Shown piece by piece: positions 21,627 to 42,614 of a stretch of DNA of 64,000 bases. The stretch is from Candidatus Kaiserbacteria bacterium (lineage in GTDB: Bacteria; Patescibacteriota; Minisyncoccia; Phycocordibacterales; Phycocordibacteraceae). A program made the translations under genes and the position numbers. The notes below the pieces were generated by a model. That model saw nothing but the letters and a program-made list of their open reading frames with translations. It had not been told where the DNA came from and searched no databases. The stretch is from positions 7,267 to 71,266 of the forward strand of contig CAWEXP010000004.1 in assembly GCA_963813065.1 (NCBI GenBank), given 5' to 3'. Positions within the stretch are counted from its first letter, which is position 1. Every line of letters begins with the position of its first letter.

Positions 21627-22180
21627 GGCTTCATCTTCTGCGTTCGCCCCTTACCATCGACCACGAAGTCGGGGGCGTTCCTGTCGTTCCATCGCTCGAC
21701 CGTTCGCGCCTTTCGGATTGACCAGACGATGAGTGCGCCTCCGAGTAGGAAGATGAAAACACTCACACCATAGGATGCGTCCGTAGAGTTGGTCTTTATG
21801 ATGCCGAGTCCCATGAGCACGAAGACAAAGCCGAGCAGCCGTAAACTCTGTATCGTTTTCGTAGCATCCTCCATTCGCCGCTGCACATGCAATCGCTTTT
21901 CGGCTGGTGATTTCAACTCTTCGAGAACCGACGCCCGGCGTTGTCGATGAAGCGCGTATCTTACGAGAATGACGGAAGCGATAACCGAACCGAGTATGAA
22001 AACGAGTACCCACGGGTCAGTCCAGTGCCAGATGAGCGTAGAAAGCACGAGTGCTGCGGCGTAGCAGACAAGTGCGGTGTTGGAAAAAGGTTTTGGTAGT
22101 TTGAGTTCGCTTGGGCGCATGGGATTGCGCCGGGCGGTCGCAGAGAACCCGCCACGGGCTACGGCTTGCGCCGTACGCAT
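21623..22180 (-). CDS. Membrane protein with four predicted TM helices (start may be MRPSELKL at 22120).
   Basis: Two hydrophobic hairpins separated by a basic helical linker. First gene of the coupled cassette. Confidence 0.4.
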   Translation of the reverse strand: MRTAQAVARGGFSATARRNPMRPSELKLPKPFSNTALVCYAAALVLSTLIWHWTDPWVLVFILGSVIASVILVRYALHRQRRASVLEELKSPAEKRLHVQRRMEDATKTIQSLRLLGFVFVLMGLGIIKTNSTDASYGVSVFIFLLGGALIVWSIRKARTVERWNDRNAPDFVVDGKGRTQKMKP

Positions 22181-22368
22181 CAGTTTCCCAATGCGGCACG
22201 TAATGCGACCCCATGACGGGTTCTCTACGCATTACGTGTCTCCCGACCATGCCACCGTTACCGATGGTTTAGGTCGTCGCCCTTGCGGGCTATTCGTGTG
22301 TCTTCCCCTCACAAGAAGGGTTACTGATAAGTGTAGCGCATTTGCTACCAAGTGCTACCAAGTGTTCA

Positions 22369-23633: not shown

Positions 23634-23672
23634 CCACAAAAGCGCCTCATGATTTGTCATGGGGCTTTTTTG
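23634..23672. terminator. Bidirectional terminator hairpin (gcctcatga-tttg-tcatggggc) with flanking A/T runs, after the DUF3800 gene.
   Basis: 9 bp stem with one G-U pair. T6 on the plus strand. TTTTGTGG on the minus strand after the stop at 23647. Confidence 0.55.
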
Positions 23673-24537
23673 TAGCATCAGTACCCCACGGAACTTTCAC
23701 TGCATCGGGAACTTTTACCAAACCATATCCGGCAATCCGTCCTTTAACATTGTGATAAAAATTCTCTGTAATACGGGAGAAAAAAGAGTATTCAACTAAT
23801 GCGTTCCCTTCCGGCGATTCCCAGCTGTCGCCATGTTGTACGAACTGACGGAATATATTGTAAGCAACCGTATCGGCAAGCTGAAGAAAATTTGAATTGC
23901 ACGATTTTTCGAAACGTACACATGCGTGCGAATATTTCTTTTGGTATGAACCGAGATTGAGATCTCTTTTAGAAATCCTCAGGAGCGTACCATGATCGTG
24001 TTTCTGAGACTTGATACTTTCCTCCATTTGGTCAAAAACAATCTCGGCACCACTATTTGGATGTAGTTCGACCCGATCGAACAAGACCTGTGCCAACTCT
24101 TGAAATGGCGTTACCTTCGTTCTTTTCGCGTTATAGAACCGTTTATCAATGATAAACGCTTGAATCTGAATACTCTCACGATTTTTCTCAAACAGACTAT
24201 ACCAAGCATTCTCAACAAACCGTTTAAGGGTCTCTTCGGTAATGGCAAATGGTTCAAGATATTTCTTACGCCGTTTTATCGGAATGCGTAGCCACTCTGA
24301 TTTTATCTCGACGTGTTTTGTACCAAAGTACTCATGTTTCAAAGCGTCTATTTCCGGATTTATTCGGGCAACAGCCTCAGTTGATACATATATGCCAGCA
24401 AGCACGAAGTAATTTCCACGCCAAAATTTTATGTTTTCGTTGATGCGAGCTGGTGGTTTCAATATGAACTCATGGGCATAAGGAGTTTCCCAATCTTTAG
24501 AGCCACTATCATCAACAAAGAAGAACGGTTTGTCCAT
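23647..24537 (-). CDS. DUF3800-family protein (defense-island associated), in a distinctly AT-rich segment.
   Basis: N-terminal FFVDDSG and C-terminal FLQLADTVAYNIFRQF match the DUF3800 signature. GC clearly lower than the flanks. Confidence 0.65.
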   Translation of the reverse strand: MDKPFFFVDDSGSKDWETPYAHEFILKPPARINENIKFWRGNYFVLAGIYVSTEAVARINPEIDALKHEYFGTKHVEIKSEWLRIPIKRRKKYLEPFAITEETLKRFVENAWYSLFEKNRESIQIQAFIIDKRFYNAKRTKVTPFQELAQVLFDRVELHPNSGAEIVFDQMEESIKSQKHDHGTLLRISKRDLNLGSYQKKYSHACVRFEKSCNSNFLQLADTVAYNIFRQFVQHGDSWESPEGNALVEYSFFSRITENFYHNVKGRIAGYGLVKVPDAVKVPWGTDATKKPHDKS

Positions 24538-30975: not shown

Positions 30976-32976
30976 TTAGGCCGTGGGCGGAGGAGCGACT
31001 GTTGCCAACACGGGAGGCGCTGAGGCTTCAACCACAGGCTTCGGCGTCTCGATGCTCTTATCGGTGACGTTCTTGAGGAACTTCATCGCCAGAGCCTCCA
31101 GTCCGCCACCCTGTCCTGCCACCAAGATTTGTGGCATGAAGGGCTGACTGCTTTCGGCAAGCGCGCGAACGACGTTGATGATGGTCGTTCCTTCATCGCC
31201 AACCGCATCGCGTTGTGCCTTTAAGCCCACTGCCACCGCCAGACCTTGCGCTTCGACTTGGACGGCGCTGGCCTTGCCAACCTTTTCGAGCTTGAACGCC
31301 TCGCCTTCGGCAGACTTTTTCACTGCCTCTGCCAAGTTGGCGGCAATGCTTATGCCGACCTCGGACTTCGCCAGGGCAGCCTGTTGATCAGCCTTGCCGC
31401 GCGACTGTTCGAGCGTGAGACGTTCAGTCTGTGCCCTTTCTTCGGCCTTGTAGGTCTCTTGTTGCTGAGTCGCCACTTCGCGAGCCTGCAACACATCAAC
31501 GATCGCCTTGGGCAAGACGACGTCCTGGATGTAGACGCCGCGCGTTTCGACTCGATAGTCAGCAAGTTTTGCCTTGATATGTTGTTCGGCATCCTGCTGG
31601 ACCTTCGCACGGTCTTGGATGAACTGGACCGCTGCCATGCTTTGCAACTTGTCACGGAAGTGGTTGCCCACCGCCGCCTGCAGAACCTCGTTGACGAGGT
31701 TATACATGGTACCTACCATCGAGATTACTTTCGGCGCTTCGGTGTCCGGCACGTGGATCTGCACCTGCAGATCGATGCTGAACTCGAACCCTTCCTTCGA
31801 CTTCGCGTCGATGGCCTTGAGTTCTTTGTCGAGATTGTGCGCCTTCGAGTCCGCCTCGGCCCAGTTGAGGGTCAAGATGGCCGTCGGTACTTTCTCGACA
31901 TTGTAACAACGCGGATTGATGGCGTATTTGCCGGTGCGAAGCGATTCGCGCCATACGCCACGATGTCCAGGACGCACTAGGGAACCGAACTTGAATTCGG
32001 CACCGGAGGTGTCTTCGGTCGCGAGACCGACATAGGCCTTCACCACCGCCACTTCGCCCTGGTTGACGACGAGCATCGGTACCATCTCGACCGAAACCAG
32101 AAATGGATTCAGCGTGTACGCACCGTAGAGGAGCGGATCATGCTGAAGACCGATACGTCCGCCGTTGTCGACGAATTTCTGGAAGTCCTGGTAGTTATTG
32201 TGGAGGACATTCTTGTTAGAAAGAATGGTTTCCACCAGGGTACTGTCGGCCATCGTGGCCTCGGATTCCAACTTAGATATGTCGTCGAAGTCGCCGAGTC
32301 GGTTTGCGATGGCGCCCTTAGGAATCGGCGCGCCGTCGAACGTGGTCACAATGCCGATCATATCGACGATCTGACCATCGCGTTCGTGTTTTGGCTCAAT
32401 GCGTGTCACTTCGAGCTGGTTTTGCTGGAGACCGAACGCATCCGGCGTGAGACCGCCCTTTTGGTATACCTTTGCCTGGATTTCCTCGTCGATCGGCAGA
32501 CCGAAGACCTGATCCCGTGTGATGACGATAAAACCAAGCGGATGGATTGGGGCCACGGTGCCCGGCGGAAGTACCGGACGCTGGAGACCTTTCTGGCCGT
32601 GGTTATCAACGAATGCCTTCAGGTCCTGGAAGTTTCCGAATTCCGGTTTGTAATCAGCCGACTTCGCACCGGTCGGCAACGCATCGCCGACTTGTGAGAT
32701 GACGACACCGATTTGCCCGGCTGGGATCTGGACCCAAGGGTGACGCGTAACCGCATAGAGCGGCCAAAGTTTGAATTGCAGTCCCGGCTTCAAGAGGTCG
32801 GCCTGATAGCCCGCTTCGCCATTGAAGGCGATGGTTCCACTGGTGAGCTTCTTGAAGCTGAACCGCTTTCGAACGAGACCCATCTCAGTCGCCCCGATGT
32901 TGCGGAACGACAGGAATAACGTGAAGAGAACGAGAATCGAGAGTACCAGTACCGGTACTCCAAGTATGATCGACAT
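30976..32976 (-). CDS. Flotillin-like SPFH/band-7 domain protein.
   Basis: 667 aa. N-terminal TM, SPFH core and long EA-rich coiled coil. Start at MSIILGV. Confidence 0.8.
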   Translation of the reverse strand: MSIILGVPVLVLSILVLFTLFLSFRNIGATEMGLVRKRFSFKKLTSGTIAFNGEAGYQADLLKPGLQFKLWPLYAVTRHPWVQIPAGQIGVVISQVGDALPTGAKSADYKPEFGNFQDLKAFVDNHGQKGLQRPVLPPGTVAPIHPLGFIVITRDQVFGLPIDEEIQAKVYQKGGLTPDAFGLQQNQLEVTRIEPKHERDGQIVDMIGIVTTFDGAPIPKGAIANRLGDFDDISKLESEATMADSTLVETILSNKNVLHNNYQDFQKFVDNGGRIGLQHDPLLYGAYTLNPFLVSVEMVPMLVVNQGEVAVVKAYVGLATEDTSGAEFKFGSLVRPGHRGVWRESLRTGKYAINPRCYNVEKVPTAILTLNWAEADSKAHNLDKELKAIDAKSKEGFEFSIDLQVQIHVPDTEAPKVISMVGTMYNLVNEVLQAAVGNHFRDKLQSMAAVQFIQDRAKVQQDAEQHIKAKLADYRVETRGVYIQDVVLPKAIVDVLQAREVATQQQETYKAEERAQTERLTLEQSRGKADQQAALAKSEVGISIAANLAEAVKKSAEGEAFKLEKVGKASAVQVEAQGLAVAVGLKAQRDAVGDEGTTIINVVRALAESSQPFMPQILVAGQGGGLEALAMKFLKNVTDKSIETPKPVVEASAPPVLATVAPPPTA

Positions 32977-33051: not shown

Positions 33052-33080
33052 ACCTTAACGCAGACTGGACTCCCTGTCAA
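33052..33080 (-). promoter_or_regulatory. Candidate promoter of the flotillin gene (TTGACA, 17 nt spacer, TAAGGT).
   Basis: Reverse complement of tgtcaa at 33075-33080 and acctta at 33052-33057. GAGGAGG SD further downstream. Confidence 0.3.
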
Positions 33081-33088
33081 AACTTTTG

Positions 33089-33197
33089 TGGACCCTAGCG
33101 GATTTGAACCGCTGACCCCCTCATTGCAAATGAGGTGCTCCCCGCCCGACCGAGCGGCCCTGTGGAGCTCGGCCGTTCGGGCGGGTACCAGCTGAGC
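33089..33197 (-). pseudogene. Partial tRNA-Ala(UGC) copy (D-stem to 3' end, lacks the 5' acceptor strand) carrying a 45 nt GC-rich hairpin in the D-loop.
   Basis: GCTC-AGCTGGTA-[CCCGCCCGA...TCGGGCGGG]-GAGC then CCTCA-TTTGCAA-TGAGG, T arm, AGGGTCCA. It sits 11 nt downstream of the intact tRNA-Ala(UGC). Confidence 0.55.
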
Positions 33198-33208
33198 GAA
33201 CGACTGTG

Positions 33209-33281
33209 TGGACCGTACCAGATTTGAACTGGTGACCTCCTCATTGCAAATGAGGCGCTCTACCAACTGAGCTAACGGCCC
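33209..33281 (-). tRNA. tRNA-Ala (anticodon UGC).
   Basis: Manual cloverleaf. Acceptor GGGCCGT/ACGGTCC with G3:U70. Anticodon loop TTTGCAA. Confidence 0.85.
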
Positions 33282-33520
33282 TGATCTATTTGTTTTGCAA
33301 GGAATCGACGGCCAGCCGCCGTCTTGAAATATAATTCACGATTCCTAGCTTCTTCAAACGTATCAAATTCCTCAATATACACAACTTTGAGTTCTTGCAT
33401 TCGTGAAGTTGTGCGTGTATGTCCACTTCTATGTTCGCGTAGTCTTCTTTCAAGATTATTCGTCATCCCTTTATATAGTTTTCCATTTTTATCTCGAAGA
33501 ACGTAAGAAATGAACTTCAT
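33272..33520 (-). CDS. GIY-YIG nuclease-domain protein (URI/YhbQ-like, 82 aa) in an AT-rich insert. Its ATG overlaps the ddl stop (TAATG).
   Basis: YVLRDKNGKLYKGMTNNLERRLREHRSG is the GIY-YIG motif. Local GC is far below the flanks. The stop overlaps the tRNA-Ala 5' end. Confidence 0.7.
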   Translation of the reverse strand: MKFISYVLRDKNGKLYKGMTNNLERRLREHRSGHTRTTSRMQELKVVYIEEFDTFEEARNRELYFKTAAGRRFLAKQIDQGR

Positions 33521-34449
33521 TATCGTTCTAATGCCAAATTGACCAGATGCCCAAGAAAGTCAGGAAGCGGAACGCCAACCGAGGAGAGCGCGAGCGCCAT
33601 CGGGGAGCCCGCGCCGAGCCGCGGGAGCGGACTGGTCTCGAGATAGTAGACACCCGAGGGTGCGACGACGAAGTCGCTCTCGGAGTAGTGACGCAGGTCG
33701 AGCGAGCGATGCAGGAGCTTGGCGGCTCGCGTGAGCTCTTCGCGCGCGACGCGCGAAAAGTTGCCCGGACAGACGAGTCGCTCCTCCTCGCCCACAAGCG
33801 TAGACTCGACCGAGGGCAAGACGTAGAGTGCTTCGCCACGCAAACCCTCGACCACTGCAACCGAGGCACGCGGACCGCGAATGTATTCTTCGACCAGCAC
33901 GGCCGGTGCTCCCTCGGCAAACAGTTTCTCAATTGCAGAGAGCACGTGTGCATAGCCACCGACGACTGACGCGCCAACCGGCCCCCACCCCACTGGCTTC
34001 ACCACCACGGGCTGGGAGAACGCGCGGATAATTTCGTGGACGTTTCCTTCAATCGCACGCGCGTCGTCGAGATAGCGCGAGGAGGGCGTGAGCAAGCCAG
34101 CTTCCTGCGCACGCGCTTTCGCCATCAGCTTATGCAGAGCGACATGCGCGTTGAAAGCCTCACTGCCGCTGTAGGGCACGCCCGCTCTCTGCAGAATTTT
34201 CTGCACTTCGCCGTCCTCGCCATACTCGCCGTGGAGGGCGATGAGCACGACATCGAGCTGGCGGAGCGCGCGATCGGGCGTCGTGGGGCGACCGCGGTCG
34301 TGCCACGCGCCGCTTTTATCGATATAGATGTCGCGCGTTTGAAAGCGCTCCTCGGGCAGTTTGGAGAGCATCACCGCGCCCGTCGCGAGCGATGCCTCGT
34401 GCTGGCGTGATGGCCCGCCTCGCAGAACGCCGACGACCGTGCCTTGCAT
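33520..34449 (-). CDS. ddl: D-alanine--D-alanine ligase.
   Basis: VGVLRGGPSRQHEASL, LIALHGEYGEDG and ATP-grasp motifs. 309 aa. Confidence 0.9.
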   Translation of the reverse strand: MQGTVVGVLRGGPSRQHEASLATGAVMLSKLPEERFQTRDIYIDKSGAWHDRGRPTTPDRALRQLDVVLIALHGEYGEDGEVQKILQRAGVPYSGSEAFNAHVALHKLMAKARAQEAGLLTPSSRYLDDARAIEGNVHEIIRAFSQPVVVKPVGWGPVGASVVGGYAHVLSAIEKLFAEGAPAVLVEEYIRGPRASVAVVEGLRGEALYVLPSVESTLVGEEERLVCPGNFSRVAREELTRAAKLLHRSLDLRHYSESDFVVAPSGVYYLETSPLPRLGAGSPMALALSSVGVPLPDFLGHLVNLALER

Positions 34450-37664: not shown

Positions 37665-37730
37665 GACCGGGAGCAATCCCGGTCTTTTCTTTATCTAAAA
37701 GTTAGGACACGGCGTGTCCTAACTTTTTTA
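37665..37730. terminator. Two tandem terminator hairpins. The second (gttaggacacggcgtgtcctaac) is bidirectional and overlaps the uvrA stop.
   Basis: Hairpin 37665-37684 plus T run. Hairpin 37701-37723 flanked by an A run and a T run. Confidence 0.65.
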
Positions 37731-40439
37731 TTTCTTTAATTTCCGCTTCAACACTTTCGCGAGATACTGGCCGGTGTAGGAGTGCTCGTTGTCGGCGACT
37801 TCTTCCGGCGTGCCCTTCGCGATGACCTTGCCACCCTTCACGCCACCCTCAGGGCCGAAGTCGATGAGATAATCGCTCGACTTGATGACATCGAGATTGT
37901 GTTCGATAACCACGACCGTGTTGCCGCGACGCACGAGCTCCTGCAAAATTTCTATCAGCTTGCGCACGTCCTCGTAGTGGAGGCCGACCGTCGGCTCGTC
38001 GAGGAGATAAATCGTTTTCATCACCATCGGGCGATAGAGCTCCGAGGCAATCTTCACGCGTTGGGCCTCGCCACCCGAGAGCGTCGTTGCCGATTGGCCG
38101 AGGGTGAGATATTCCAAGCCGGTCGCCTTCAGAGATTCGAGTCGGTCAGAGATCGCGGGAATGTCTTTGAAAAATTCAAGCGCTTCCTCAACCGTCATCT
38201 GCAGGACTTCATAAATATTTTTGCCATGGAAGCTGACTTCGAGTGTCTCTTTCATAAAGCGCTTGCCCTCACAGACATCGCACGTGACGTACACCGTCGG
38301 GAGGAAATGCATCTCGACCGCGATCTGCCCGTTGCCCTGGCAGGCCTCGCAGCGGCCGCCCGGGACGTTGAAGGAGAAGCGGCCCGGCCGCCAGCCGCGC
38401 GCACGCGCCTCCGAGGTCGCGGCGAAGAGGTCGCGAATATGCGTCATCGCGCCGGTGTAGGTTGCGGGATTGGAGCGCGGCGTGCGCCCAATCGGCGACT
38501 GATCGATCAGCACGGTGCGACCGACGTACTCGGTGCCGGCCATCGAGGCGACGTGCTGGAGCTTGGCTTCCCTCTTCGCGAATCGCGCCGCAAGATTTTT
38601 ATGCAAAATATCGTAGAGGAACGTCGACTTGCCACTTCCGGAGACGCCCGTGATGCAGACCAGCTTGCCGAGCGGCACATCCACATTTTGATTCTTCAGA
38701 TTGTGGAGTGTCGCACCACGAATCATAATCTTGCCCTTCTCGCTTTCGCGGCGATCCTCGGGTGTCGGGATTTCTTTTTCGAGGCGCAAATAATCGAGCG
38801 TAACGGAGCCCGAGTCGTTGTGCGGCGTGGTCAGGAGGTCGTCGAGCCAGCCTTGCAGCGACGACCTTCCCGCCGTGCGTGCCCGCGCCCGGACCAATGT
38901 CCACAATGTAGTCGGCGGCGTAGATAGTATCCTCGTCGTGCTCGACGACCACGATGGTGTTGCCGAGCTCCTTCAGCGCAAGCAGAGTCTTGATGAGGCG
39001 ATCATTGTCGCGCTGATGGAGACCGATGGTCGGCTCATCGAGCACGTACAAGGCACCCGTGAGCCCCGGCCGAGCTGGGACGCGAGACGGATGCGCTGGG
39101 CCTCGCCGCCGGAAAGGGTCGCGGCCGAGCGATCGAGGGTGAGATAGTCGAGACCAACATTGAGCATGAAGGTGAGGCGGCTGTTGATCTCGCGCAAGAT
39201 TGGTGCGGCGATATCTTTTTTCATTTCCGAAAGTTCGAGCGAATCGACAAACTTCTTCGCGTCGCCGATGGACATGTTCACAAAGTCAACAATGTTCACA
39301 CCCAGCCCATGTTCGGACTTCGTAAGTCCGGATTCCGAAGAGGACTTACGAAGTCCCCCCATTCCCTCCGACTTCAAGTACACCCGCAAAGCCTCGGGGC
39401 GCAGGCGCTTGCCGAGACAGACCGGACACACTTCCTCGGAAAAAAGTGACTCGGTGCCGAGACCGTTACAGGCCGGGCACGCACCATAGGGAGAATTGAA
39501 GGAGAAGAGTCGCGGCTCCACCTCCGGAAATGAGGCACCGTCCTCGGGGCAAATAAATTTCGACGAGAGCGTCTCGGTCGTGCCGTCCGCGTGTTTAATT
39601 TTTACCAACCCATCAGACTCTTTGAGCGCCAGCTCGAGCGCCTCGGAGAGTCGTTCACGCGCGCCTGCGGTCGAACGCGAGAATTCAGAAACGAAAATAG
39701 TGTCGACAACCGCGTCGATGTCGTGACGCTTGTTGCGGTCGAGTTCGATCTTCTCGCGGAGCGACTGCGATCTTCCCATCAATCATCACTTTTTCATATC
39801 CCTTGCCGAGAAGGTCGTAGAGCAGTTGGTAGTACTCGCCTTTGCGACCGACGACCACCGGCGCATAAATAGTCACTGCGCTCTTGTCGACAACGACCAC
39901 ATCTGCCAAGGTCGAACCTGAGAATTCGGATTTAAGGTTCGACCTTGACGCCGTGCGTCGACGCGCGTGAGCACCATTTTGATCATTTCTTCTTTCGACA
40001 ATTTTACAATCGGGACATCGTGATGGATGCAGTACGCCTGGCCCGCGCGCGCATAGAGGACGCGGAGATAATCGTAAATCTCGGTCACCGTCGCCACCGT
40101 CGAACGCGGATTGTTGGAACGACTTTTTTGGTCGATAGAAATCGCGGGCGAGAGGCCGGTAATCTCATCCACGTCTGGTTTCGCCATCTGGTTGAGGAAT
40201 TGTCGCGCGTAGGCGGAAAGCGATTCGACATAGCGACGCTGACCCTCGGCAAAAATAGTGTCGAACGCGAGCGAGGACTTCCCCGAGCCCGAGAGGCCGG
40301 TGATGACCGACATCGCCCCGCGCGGCAATTGTACGTTGATATTTTTCAAATTATGGGTGCGCGCACCCTTCACCACGAGCCAGTCGCTCCCGTGCTTGTG
40401 TTCGTGTATCTCCTTCGCGCTTTGTTTTTTGGTTGCCAT
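37728..40439 (-). pseudogene. uvrA: Excinuclease ABC subunit A with at least four frameshifts (five overlapping ORF fragments). One in-frame palindromic-element insertion.
   Basis: Fragments 39873-40490 (MATKKQ...[25 protein letters not shown]), 39685-39909, 38973-39782 (Zn finger CPVCLGKRL..., [16 protein letters not shown]), 38599-39051 ([13 protein letters not shown]...GPGAGTHGG) and 37728-38906 (second ABC domain). Confidence 0.8.
39315..39356. repeat. Palindromic element type A pair (GGACTTCGTAAGTCC, 12 nt spacer, GGACTTACGAAGTCC) inside uvrA, in frame.
   Basis: Encodes GGLRKSSSESGLTKSEHG inserted between the VYL... and ...MSIGDA segments, relative to E. coli UvrA. Flank cccatgttc. Confidence 0.8.
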
Positions 40440-40495: not shown

Positions 40496-42614
40496 TTAGC
40501 TTCCAGAAAGCGGCTTGCGCGTGCGACCTTTTTTCTTCGGGCCCGTGCCTTCAAGTTTATAAATCTCGTCACGGATGAGTGCGGCCGTTTCGAAATCAAG
40601 TTTCTCGACCGCTTCCGCCATCTCGTCGCGCTTCTGCTTGATGAAGGCCGTCGGGTCATCGCGGTACGCAAGCTTGTCGAGCACGAGGAGTTCGTCAATC
40701 GTCTTCTGGTGCTCGGTGCGCATCGACGCGGCAATGTCGTGAATCTCTTTGTGGATGGTCTGCGGAGTGATGCCGTGCGCCTGGTTATAGGCGAGCTGGA
40801 TGGCGCGACGACGATTCGTCTCCCCAATCGCCTTCTCGAGAGAGCCGGTCATGACGTCGGCATAGAGAATCACTTTACCGAGTACGTTACGAGCGGCTCT
40901 GCCGATGGTCTGGATGAGCGACGTCTCCGAGCGCAGGAAACCTTCTTTGTCGGCGTCGAGAATGCCCACGAGCTCCACCTCGGGCAAATCCAATCCCTCG
41001 CGCAGGAGGTTCACGCCGACGAGAATGTCGAACTTCCCTTTGCGGAAGTTGGTGAGAATGTCGATGCGGTCAATCGTCTTTACGTCGCTGTGGAGGTACT
41101 CAGCTTTTATTTTTTTCTCGCGCAAGAATTGTGCCAAGTCCTCGGCCATCTGTTTGGTGAGCGTGGTCGCGAGCGCTCGGCCACCGCCCTTGATGGTCTT
41201 CTCTGCTTCTTCAATAAAATCCGCCACCTGTCCAATGTAGGGTTTCGTAAATCCTACATGCTCGGAATGTGGGGACTTCGTAAGTCCGGACATGGGCTCG
41301 GCTCCTTCAGTTACTGGACGAATCACCAGTTCGGGATCAATGAGACCCGTTGGGCGAATAATTTGTTCGACCACTTGCTCGGAGTGCGCCTTCTCGTACG
41401 GCCCCGGTGTCGCGCTCGTGTAGAGTGCTCTGACCAATCCGATTTTCAAATTCTTCGAAGCGAAGCGGACGATTGTCGCGCGCCGAAGGGAGGCGGAAGC
41501 CGTATTCGACAAGCACATCCTTGCGCGATTTGTCGCCCGCATACATGCCGCCAATCTGCGGGACGGTGACATGCGATTCGTCGATGACCGTTAAGAAATC
41601 TGCTGAGCCGTCTTTTTTATGAGGAAAGTATGACAAAAGAGTGTGCGGCGGTTCGCCGGATGCGCGACCGTCGAAGTGGCGTGAGTAATTCTCGATACCG
41701 CTCGTGTAGCCAATCTCGCGGATGAGCGCGAGGTCGTGGAGCGTGCGACGCTTCAAGCGTTCGGCCTCGAGCGGTTTCTCCTCGCGCTTAAACTTCGCGA
41801 GCTGTCCTTCGAGCTCAAGCTTGATGTCTTCGATAGCGCGCACACGTTCCTTTTCGCTACTCACGAAGTGCTTGGCCGGAAAGACGAACACCGAATCGGG
41901 CTCGACCACTTTAGCGCGCGAGACCGGGTCGAGCTGGTGCACCGAAGAAACGACATCGCCATCGAAGGTCGCGCGATAAATCACCTTTTCGTTCACCGGC
42001 ATGAACTCGACCGCATTCCCCACTGCGCGGATCTTGCCCGGCTCGAGGTCGGCATTGGTCCGCTCGAAATAAATCCGGATGAGCTGGCGAATCAATCCTG
42101 CGCGACCACCTTCAATCGCCTTGCCGCGCACAATCTTCACGTGCACTTTCTCATATTCCTCGGGCGAGCCGAGACCGTAAATCGCGGAGACCGACGCGAC
42201 GATAATCACATCCTTGCGCGTGAGTAGCGCTTGCGTCGCCGCGTGGCGGAGACGGTCAATCTCGGCGTTAATCATCGCCTCTTTCTCGATGTACGTATCG
42301 GAGTGCGCAATGTACGCCTCGGGCTGGTAGTAGTCATAGTAAGAAACGAAATAGTGCACCGCGTTCTCGGGGAAAAATTCGCGATATTCCTGCGCGAGCT
42401 GAGCTGCGAGCGTCTTATTGTGCGCGAGGACGAGGGTCGGCTTGTCGAAGTGGGCAATAACATTGGCACAGGTGAAGGTCTTGCCCGAGCCGGTGACGCC
42501 GAGCAGAGTCTGGTGGCGCATGCCCTTCTCTAACCCCTCCTCGAGTGCGCGAATGGCCGCCGGCTGATCGCCTGCGGGCTGGTAGGGGCTCTGCAACTTG
42601 AAATTGCGCGACAT
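40496..42614 (-). pseudogene. uvrB: Excinuclease ABC subunit B with one +1 frameshift near 41430-41445. One in-frame palindromic-element insertion.
   Basis: N-terminal fragment 41337-42614 (GVTGSGKTFTCANVIA...FEEFENRIGQ). C-terminal fragment 40496-41572 (ALYTSATPGPYE...LVGVNLLREGLDLPEV...UVR tail). Junction ggtcagagcactctac. Confidence 0.8.
41240..41285. repeat. Palindromic element type A pair in uvrB (degenerate GGTTTCGTAAATCC plus GGACTTCGTAAGTCC, same orientation), in frame.
   Basis: Encodes MSGLTKSPHSEHVGFTKPYI between PVTEGAE and QVADFIEE. Flanked by ATGTAGG/CCTACAT and ATGTGG/GGACAT inverted ends. Confidence 0.75.

Follow-up and report, generated by a model that had tools for sequence, protein, structure and literature searches.

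A small GIY-YIG nuclease gene running into a tRNA-Ala(UGC) gene, and a palindrome-split tRNA remnant, in a Kaiserbacteria-like genome

The closest known system to the locus described here is that of the Ssn GIY-YIG nucleases with their NTS/SRM hairpin repeats. Ssn proteins, which are known in Neisseria, are single-domain GIY-YIG nucleases that bind and cut single-stranded DNA at hairpin repeats. These repeats flank the nuclease gene itself, an arrangement that recalls an IS (Chenal et al. 2025, PMC11893778). One of them, SsnA (94 aa), modulates transformation, and an analogy with REP/RAYT and IS200/IS605 has also been drawn for Ssn, in a paper that mentions neither tRNA nor Patescibacteria (PMC11893778). 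In phage T4, SegB is a free-standing GIY-YIG homing endonuclease encoded in a tRNA gene cluster; the gene is reported to be inherited preferentially, along with the tRNA sequence on its flanks, and to favour segmental amplification in tRNA regions (PMC2330249; PMC13096335). A literature search returned no account of CPR bacteria in which a GIY-YIG gene is fused to a tRNA gene, or of palindrome-split tRNA remnants, and the embedding of a GIY-YIG gene and hairpin in tRNA genes appears to be undescribed so far.

The locus is located in a 64,000-nucleotide stretch of DNA (hereafter the window) from a Kaiserbacteria-like MAG of the Patescibacteria; all the datasets used in this analysis are MAGs or metagenome assemblies. 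Homologs of the encoded D-Ala-D-Ala ligase (ddl) share 60-68% identity in Kaiserbacteria/Paceibacterota, the best 67-68%, which places the genome within the Patescibacteria, close to Kaiserbacteria/Paceibacterota. On the minus strand, UvrC is followed by an SdpI-like protein, ddl, the GIY-YIG ORF, a first and a second copy of tRNA-Ala(UGC) (copy 1 and copy 2), an SPFH protein, HtrA and tRNA Val/Pro/Pro/Ala, other neighbours being an aminotransferase, UvrA/B and TGT (Table 1). The SPFH protein was dropped as a synteny marker, since it is ~70% identical to proteins of unrelated bacteria. A BLAST search of positions 31.5-35.5 kb of the window against a phage collection gave generic tRNA matches only.

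Table 1. Coordinates of the tRNA-Ala(UGC) pair, its palindromic insert and the adjoining genes in the window
Feature	Positions	Strand	Evidence or remark
ddl (D-Ala-D-Ala ligase)	33520..34449	-	Pfam PF01820/PF07478; conserved upstream anchor
Stand-alone GIY-YIG nuclease gene, 82 aa	33272..33520	-	PF01541, E = 6e-15
tRNA-Ala(UGC) copy 1, intact	33209..33281	-	ARAGORN; Rfam 73.2 bits, full length
11-nt spacer CACAGTCGTTC	33198..33208	-	Between copy 1 and copy 2
Copy 2 remnant nt 10-21, GCTCAGCTGGTA (D-stem 5' strand and D-loop)	33186..33197	-	Direct reading
Palindromic insert, 45 nt, CCCGCCCGAACGGCCGAGCTCCACAGGGCCGCTCGGTCGGGCGGG	33141..33185	.	Between tRNA nt 21 and 22
Copy 2 remnant nt 22-73, GAGC...GGGTCCA	33089..33140	-	D-stem 3' strand, anticodon arm, variable loop, T arm, acceptor 3' strand, discriminator
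Native 3' trailer AAAAGTTTTGA of resident tRNA-Ala	33077..33087	-	Motif AAGTTTTKGA of native loci

The predicted nuclease consists of a GIY-YIG domain (PF01541 over residues 5-69) with no second domain. The start of its gene overlaps the ddl stop codon (TAATG) and its end runs into copy 1: the final three codons and the TAG stop fall on nt 1-10 of this tRNA, the stop codon being nt 8-10. With a GC content of 37%, versus 56% for the window and 64% for ddl, the GIY-YIG module is compositionally foreign in this genome. In a profile search of the PDB, the protein matched only the UPF0213 proteins 1YWL (E = 3e-8) and 1ZG2 (E = 6e-7), and no family in NCBIfam or PADLOC corresponds to it. The exact protein has no entry in a collection of 15 billion proteins, and the gene has therefore probably never been called.

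Copy 1 is a canonical tRNA-Ala(UGC) according to ARAGORN and Rfam. Copy 2 extends from the D-stem to the 3' end (33197-33089, minus strand) and matches copy 1 at 56 of 64 positions over nt 10-73. The initial annotation had described an intact tRNA-Ala(UGC) followed after 11 nt by a second copy running from the D-stem to the 3' end, and direct reading of the sequence confirms this description. Sequence comparison likewise bears out the identical anticodon arm and the near-identical acceptor 3' strand, in which one nucleotide differs. The T arm had also been called near-identical, which is true of the T-loop, the same in both copies, but is overstated for the T-stem, where three of the five pairs differ through compensating changes. 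Copy 2 is indeed devoid of a matching 5' acceptor strand, as nothing 5' of GCTC pairs with the 3' strand AGGGTCC; an MFE pairing of UGG-ACCC with GGGUCCA was judged to be due to chance. The hairpin of 9 + 6 bp previously noticed in its D-loop folds as DNA with -18.8 kcal/mol (z = -4.06; 0 of 200 shuffles fold equally well). The tandem pair is known from a single MAG assembly; L001, an independent contig that is nearly identical, ends within copy 1, at the repeat common to both copies.

A metagenome scan with ddl, giving the orthologous loci of ~27 related lineages, points to the copy that is native. In these 27 loci, one intact tRNA-Ala(UGC) follows ddl, and both the GIY-YIG gene and the palindrome are absent from all of them. 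A GIY-YIG gene is present at the ddl locus in three cases only (the window, L015/L016 and L028), with palindromes in all three (Fisher p = 2.5e-4), and its presence is thus sporadic at an otherwise conserved locus. Over nt 10-73 and without the hairpin, copy 2 matches the native tRNA of L116 at 61 of 64 positions and those of L004 and L109 at 58 of 64, versus 53-56 of 64 for copy 1 against the same natives. In addition, (i) the native tRNA-Ala linked to ddl in L116 has exactly GCTCAGCTGGTA as its D-arm, and (ii) the native trailer AAGTTTTKGA, found after tRNA-Ala in L004, L109, L113, L116 and L127, is found after copy 2 and is absent after copy 1. Because it is closer to the natives and has kept the native 3' trailer, copy 2 is taken to be the resident gene, and copy 1 would be a functional replacement tRNA that arrived with the AT-rich GIY-YIG ORF.

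We consider it likely, with a probability of roughly three in four, that copy 2 is the resident tRNA-Ala(UGC), now dead, and that a selfish cassette composed of the nuclease gene and its own tRNA lies between ddl and copy 2. The cassette would comprise the GIY-YIG gene fused to copy 1 through the stop codon at tRNA nt 8-10. The resident gene would have been broken at the two sites preferred by the family, 9/10 and 21/22 (the edges of the D-stem 5' strand and D-loop), with loss of nt 1-9, and would now bear a truncated palindrome relic at 9/10 and an intact palindrome at 21/22. Copy 1 would supply the tRNA-Ala function, and for this reason the host would tolerate the loss of the resident gene.

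The putative relic at 9/10 corresponds to the 11-nt spacer. In one palindrome subtype, the interior characteristically ends at its 3' side with the motif CAGTCGTTC. The 82 related loci contain this motif 29 times versus 1.9 expected, and 20 of these occurrences are followed by a GGGCGGG arm; in L086, the full CACAGTCGTTC is present and is followed by GGGCGGG. From this enrichment and the L086 case, the spacer is read as the relic of a second palindrome, whose 3' interior, without the GGGCGGG arm, stands at the resident site 9/10.

The window is one member of a recurrent family. The closest homologs of its GIY-YIG protein (60-77% identity, all ~80 aa, all from CPR bacteria) were traced to their contigs and completed with 80 loci from a profile scan (one genome per species); the relations between ORFs and tRNAs were counted in a non-redundant set of 85 ORFs, and palindromes in 83 loci. 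The homologs are 73-135 aa long. The stop codon lies within a tRNA gene for 67 of the 85 ORFs, at nt 8-10 (the conserved U8-A9-G10) in 51 and as TAG in 63, and 14 further ORFs stop ≤150 nt upstream of a tRNA. The tRNAs joined to ORFs represent 16 isoacceptors, specific for Ala, Thr, Phe, Val, Ile, Met, Asp, Arg, Lys and His. GIY-YIG ORFs with 78-82% identity to one another are associated with tRNAs for Phe, Thr, Lys and Ala, and one MAG carries a near-identical unit of palindrome and ORF on two different tRNA-Val genes, the flanking tRNA parts being local. Bacteroidota relatives (L105-L107) possess another palindrome at the same D-loop site. The protein profile retrieves 1,338 clusters (50% identity) at E ≤ 1e-10, and no relatives among viral contigs. 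At least one palindrome and a same-isotype tRNA fragment split by it are present in 75 of the 83 loci. The module, i.e. a nuclease ORF, an intact tRNA and a same-isotype palindrome-split fragment, is recurrent across Patescibacteria and on many isotypes, and the link to the adjacent GIY-YIG nuclease proposed in the initial annotation was right in spirit.

The palindrome itself is a conserved family element and not a local scar sequence. A search for further copies, as had been suggested, showed that the hairpin with its exact arms is unique in the 64-kb window, which contains seven tRNA genes. It belongs to the CCCGCCCG(AACG)...CGGGCGGG family, and its closest relatives are found in L089, L060, L074 and L070 (CCCGCCCGAACGRCCGA...TCGGTCGGGCGGG). 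No Rfam family was found for the palindrome or the downstream element, either in the window at gathering thresholds or in three related loci in E-value mode. The 83 loci contain 95 palindromes of 26-49 nt, of which 73 lie ≤120 nt upstream of the ATG, 17 lie ≤300 nt downstream of the ORF and 5 lie elsewhere; several loci have palindromes flanking the ORF on both sides. Insertion sites are 21/22 (GGTA^GAGC, the commonest), 9/10, 13/14, 10/11, the anticodon loop and the T-stem. The outer arms CCCGCCCG...CGGGCGGG are near-invariant across very distant lineages, and the interior is asymmetric, with AACG beside one arm. In the upstream position, 41 palindromes are in plus and 25 in minus orientation, and one common variant is the exact reverse complement of another. 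Wobbles in the outer stem (17 sense G.T versus 10 antisense) have no strand bias. A strand-specific RNA role was rejected on the basis of these two counts, neither of which is biased, and the presence of both orientations together with the unbiased wobbles leads us to read the palindrome as a DNA-level element.

By analogy with Ssn, the palindrome may be the cis element of the nuclease, which would bind it and cut alongside it, probably in the form of extruded or single-stranded DNA. Three observations run against the preferred explanation: the palindrome does not conform to the SRM motif, its copy number is low here and its subtype does not co-vary with the protein. It is conceivable, if rather improbable, that the palindrome is instead an independent MITE-like or structural repeat that survives in redundant tRNA copies, the GIY-YIG protein creating the redundancy with no action on the palindrome. 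An independent repeat would account for the two orientations, for the nesting of one palindrome inside another in L050, L067, L085 and L087, for the absence of co-variation between palindrome subtype and protein sequence (p = 0.24) and for a palindrome in L096 that is ~900 nt from the ORF and outside any tRNA. However, 90 of the 95 copies are beside the ORF, none is present in the 27 GIY-less loci and only one in 64 kb; moreover, such constancy of the outer arms over very distant lineages and the precedent of Ssn, in which such hairpins are nuclease cis elements, speak for the nuclease-linked reading. A common repeat unrelated to tRNA, which the initial annotation had envisaged for the hairpin, is true in its first part, since the palindrome forms a common repeat family, but not in its second, since this family is tightly tied to tRNA genes. 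The palindrome was also considered as conferring 'immunity' by protecting a recognition site in the D-arm. This was rejected as the whole explanation, since intact ORF-adjacent tRNAs often share the D-arm of the split copy (L051, L052); for the same reason, the D-arm sequence alone cannot determine cleavage.

An unlikely alternative, weaker than the preceding one, is that the module has been domesticated and regulates DNA uptake/recombination or the expression of the tRNA operon, with the palindrome acting mainly as an RNA-level insulator or terminator in a tRNA-promoter-driven transcript. Indeed, in 66 of the 83 loci a palindrome separates the ATG from the side of the native tRNA promoter, in some loci its 3' arm and GAGC form a Shine-Dalgarno-like box (GGGGAG), symmetric arms would make an orientation-independent RNA stem, and SsnA modulates transformation (PMC11893778). 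Against a host function stand the sporadic presence of the module at the ddl locus and its foreign composition, the many isotypes and nested remnants, which are marks of a mobile element, the hairpin-to-ATG distance, which varies between loci, and the position of the hairpin in the window, downstream of the ORF and not in a 5' UTR.

The selfish-cassette reading leaves several routes by which the remnants could have been generated. Most ORFs are preceded by a 5' fragment of the same tRNA, interrupted by a palindrome, and in ~30 loci this upstream fragment is 100% identical to the adjacent intact tRNA over nt 1-21, often over nt 22-38 too. As most split fragments are upstream and 100% identical to the adjacent tRNA, in-situ duplication or gene conversion fits better than simple displacement, and the displacement history of the window may be only one of several routes. 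A derivation of the upstream remnants from an earlier ORF-tRNA unit was rejected as a general rule, since a comparison of the 30 nt upstream of the remnant with the ORF 3' end bore it out only in L043 and L068. Most split copies elsewhere are bare 5' or 3' fragments. Downstream palindrome-split copies are present in ~11 loci as well as in the window, and an intact same-anticodon tRNA adjoins every one of them. The layout of the window (ORF, intact tRNA, then nt 8/10-21, palindrome and nt 22-76) is also found in L040 and L098, where the 3' part of the split copy is complete; in L028, which is the ddl locus of a second Kaiserbacterium, with an extra degraded upstream remnant fused to the ddl stop; in L087, L070 and L043, with remnants on both sides; and in L080, with three tandem units. 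L051 and L052 are variants of it. In L087, L043 and L070, the left and right palindromes have the same sequence in direct orientation, which suggests duplication of a palindrome-carrying segment.

Neither plain D-loop insertion nor a Campbell-type crossover accounts for all of these configurations. Breaks at the tRNA D-arm would lead to duplication and gene conversion, and hence to the spread of the ORF and palindrome; the duplications could have come about through staggered breaks at either edge of the D-arm, through conversion of one copy by another or through recombination at the palindrome.

The pair had initially been annotated as a possible integrase-type att duplication or excision scar, in which an element once lay between the copies and left a 3'-partial duplicate, and this now seems very improbable. 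An intact tRNA followed by a same-sense copy without a 5' end does reproduce the classical attL/attR geometry, and some related loci have direct copies of the tRNA 3' end (nt ~56-75) located 80-160 nt downstream. Nevertheless, (i) Pfam annotation of the neighbours revealed no integrase or recombinase within ~10 kb of the tRNA pair, and only 11 nt separate the copies, (ii) the repeat begins at nt 10, well 5' of where att cores usually lie, (iii) the native sequence and trailer are on the partial copy and not on the intact one, which fits displacement, and (iv) the architecture, encountered in dozens of unrelated genomes and always beside a small GIY-YIG gene, is tied to GIY-YIG genes and the palindrome (75/83 loci) and absent from the 27 GIY-less loci.

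The initial annotation had also allowed for a complete canonical tRNA overlooked in copy 2. The predictors call only 33160-33089, which is a tRNA-Ala for both ARAGORN and Rfam RF00005 (37.9 bits; gathering threshold 29) and keeps G3:U70. The acceptor of this call is only 5 bp long, its 5' strand GGGCC being taken from the hairpin loop; model positions 6-9 are deleted in the Rfam alignment, non-standard pairs are flagged at the base of the acceptor stem, and both a complete 7-bp acceptor stem and nt 8-9 are missing. Given the borrowed GGGCC and the deleted positions, this call is an artefact and no canonical tRNA; ARAGORN calls starting inside family hairpins also occur in L040 and L098. Copy 2 as a functional non-canonical tRNA, either with the palindrome removed like an intron (the intron-containing or permuted tRNA of the initial annotation) or with a start at the hairpin GGGCC, retains hardly any plausibility: both halves of the D-stem are preserved, as are the anticodon arm and the T arm, and the predictor call would agree with it, but neither the called tRNA nor the other exon set has a proper 5' acceptor strand, the palindrome occurs in both orientations without strand-biased wobbles, split copies are mostly truncated fragments, an intact same-anticodon tRNA is always adjacent, and no D-loop intron pathway is known in bacteria.

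More tentatively, and with somewhat less than even odds, these loci may represent a new class of tRNA-gene-specific mobile elements of Patescibacteria with Bacteroidota relatives, in which a minimal UPF0213/Ssn-like GIY-YIG nuclease and its cognate bulged palindrome would break the edges of the D-arm and duplicate or replace the tRNA, the host remaining viable and the nuclease being expressed only from the unprocessed precursor. Expression would be tied to the unprocessed tRNA precursor by the stop codon inside the tRNA: as this stop is U8-A9-G10, cleavage by RNase P would make the mRNA non-stop.

If this is true, CPR tRNA genes would be the habitat of a compact nuclease-plus-hairpin parasite that remodels loci through duplicates, chimeras and dead copies and confuses tRNA predictors. 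The range of Ssn-type hairpin-guided GIY-YIG nucleases would be extended to a new class of targets and to another phylum-level group, natural protein/hairpin pairs could be used for ssDNA tools, and the stop codon inside the tRNA would provide a testable case of expression coupled to tRNA processing. For annotation, ARAGORN/Rfam calls like 33160-33089 are best regarded as pseudogenes, and ORFs of 80 aa that run into tRNA genes should be annotated instead of being discarded.

Several known systems share part of these features. Archaeal tRNA introns are short inserts at stem/loop junctions, D-arm positions included, and archaeal intron-containing or split tRNAs resemble the locus in having a short insert at such a junction; they differ in that the host here is a bacterium, with no bulge-helix-bulge, no complete exon set, redundant fragments and palindromes in both orientations. 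The tRNA att duplications of integrative elements likewise associate an intact tRNA with a same-sense partial copy, whereas here there is no integrase, the segment reaches nt 10, a palindrome occupies the D-loop and a GIY-YIG gene is linked. REP/BIME-RAYT and IS200/IS605 also combine a small nuclease-type gene with short palindromes that occur in either orientation and can be nested; here, no HUH (Y1) transposase was found, the GIY-YIG gene being the sole associated ORF, and the palindromes, present in very few copies, have tRNA genes as their only targets.

SegB is a protein of ~220 aa. It shares with the present gene the embedding of a GIY-YIG nuclease gene among tRNA genes, and the sporadic presence at a conserved locus (3 present versus 27 absent) is a likeness to free-standing, Seg-like homing endonucleases. 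It differs as a multi-domain, site-specific dsDNA homing enzyme of phages, without palindromic insert, split tRNA remnants or ORF-tRNA overlap, whereas the protein of the window is a catalytic domain only, without a C-terminal DNA-binding domain.

The Ssn nucleases differ from the present system in four respects: (i) within ±500 nt of 83 ORFs, the SRM motif HGTCWYN(0-2)YYVSBRHN(0-5)WNVSBRGN(0-2)RNCYNB is matched only in L084, with 0 matches in the window, (ii) the palindrome here is local, with 1-3 copies, whereas the Ssn repeat is present hundreds of times, (iii) here the nuclease gene and a tRNA gene are fused, with hairpins located at defined positions within tRNA fragments, and (iv) the nearest solved structures to the protein here are UPF0213 proteins. 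The two systems nonetheless share a stand-alone GIY-YIG protein of ~80-95 aa (<150 aa) without a DNA-binding domain, and a gene flanked on one or both sides by GC-rich hairpin repeats of 20-50 nt, with an asymmetric part that gives them an orientation, in an IS-like layout.

The loop of the palindrome that splits the resident tRNA-Ala remnant of the window is GCTCCACAGGGCCGC, while the closest family members have the loop AAGTCAT instead. Within this loop, CAGGGCCG is an exact match to the junction between the end of the GIY-YIG ORF and the start of the intact tRNA-Ala(UGC), and it is because the loop holds CAGGGCCG that a spurious tRNA is called at the palindrome by ARAGORN and Rfam (33160-33089). 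The CAGGGCCG-bearing loop may have originated by slippage or by templated repair.

An independent, near-identical contig (L001, Logan ERR11630400, 4492 bp) spans the region from UvrC to GIY-YIG and ends within the intact tRNA, just past the anticodon arm common to both tRNA copies, consistent with the assembly having broken at the tRNA repeat. A number of contigs that carry the closest homolog (L016-L021) likewise terminate just past the ORF.

The SPFH/Band-7 gene that immediately follows the resident tRNA remnant (Table) encodes a protein 65-73% identical to proteins labelled Alphaproteobacteria (Rhizomicrobium) in the sources. Relatives lack the gene at this position, tRNA-Ala being followed there by HtrA or by the tRNA cluster, and the gene was likely acquired horizontally next to the tRNA. 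Elsewhere in the window, the two-ORF appearance of the UvrA-like and UvrB-like coding regions may reflect frameshifts, assembly errors or insertions.

Table. Coordinates of features in the window and in related loci
Feature	Location	Strand	Remarks
LOOT RNA motif (RF03000)	window 22160-22275	-	full-length match, 84.2 bits, E = 2e-14
DUF3800 gene	window 23647-24537	-	near the LOOT RNA motif
SPFH/Band-7 gene	window 30976-32976	-	666 aa; next after the resident tRNA remnant
Palindrome loop	window 33152-33166		contains CAGGGCCG
ORF-end/tRNA-start junction	window 33283-33276		matches CAGGGCCG
UvrA-like coding region	window 37728-39782	-	two separate or overlapping ORFs
UvrB-like coding region	window 40496-42614	-	two separate or overlapping ORFs
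Second recurrent element	L005 2830-2975		also in L042, L046, L068, L073, L044, L037
Second recurrent element	L015 815-925
Tandem units after intact tRNA	L080 1815-2210		three units

In related loci, a second recurrent element lies 80-200 nt past the intact cassette tRNA. In this element the T-arm or 3' end is copied in inverted orientation, a conserved core follows (for example GGAAGGGGTCGGGAAAC..., or CGGAACG...CGGGGTCGCGA...TTGTGACCA), and after the core tRNA nt ~56-75 are copied in direct orientation. The element had no match in Rfam and is absent from the window. Other palindromes also occur in tRNA remnants: a small one of another type, CCCGCCAGAATGAC...GTCGGGCTGG, is nested in the CCCGCCCG...CGGGCGGG palindrome in the upstream remnants of L050, L067, L075, L085 and L087, and the older remnants of L042, L056, L031 and L049 are split by other types (GGCCGAC...GTCGGCC, TCCCGA...TCGGGA, TCCGCCCGGATGAA...CCGTTCGGACGGG). 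Each tandem unit of L080 comprises a palindrome, tRNA-Ala nt 22-76 and a degenerate 5' piece, the first unit containing a run of N in the assembly.

In Bacteroidota (L105-L107; Allomuricauda and Rikenellaceae MAGs), the genes of nuclease relatives (46% identical) likewise lie 3' of a 5' tRNA fragment that is interrupted at the D-loop, and in L106 and L107 the palindrome is of a different type, CCTGCCTGCCGGCAGGCAGG. As for the NTS/SRM hairpin repeats of Ssn GIY-YIG nucleases (PMC11893778), the published SRM motif was matched in only one of the 83 GIY-YIG loci, L084; this locus, from a Minisyncoccia MAG, has a pair of canonical NTS/SRM hairpins of the Neisseria type, TGTCATTCCCGCGCAAGCGGGAATCCAG and a variant, on opposite strands within 500 nt of the GIY-YIG ORF.
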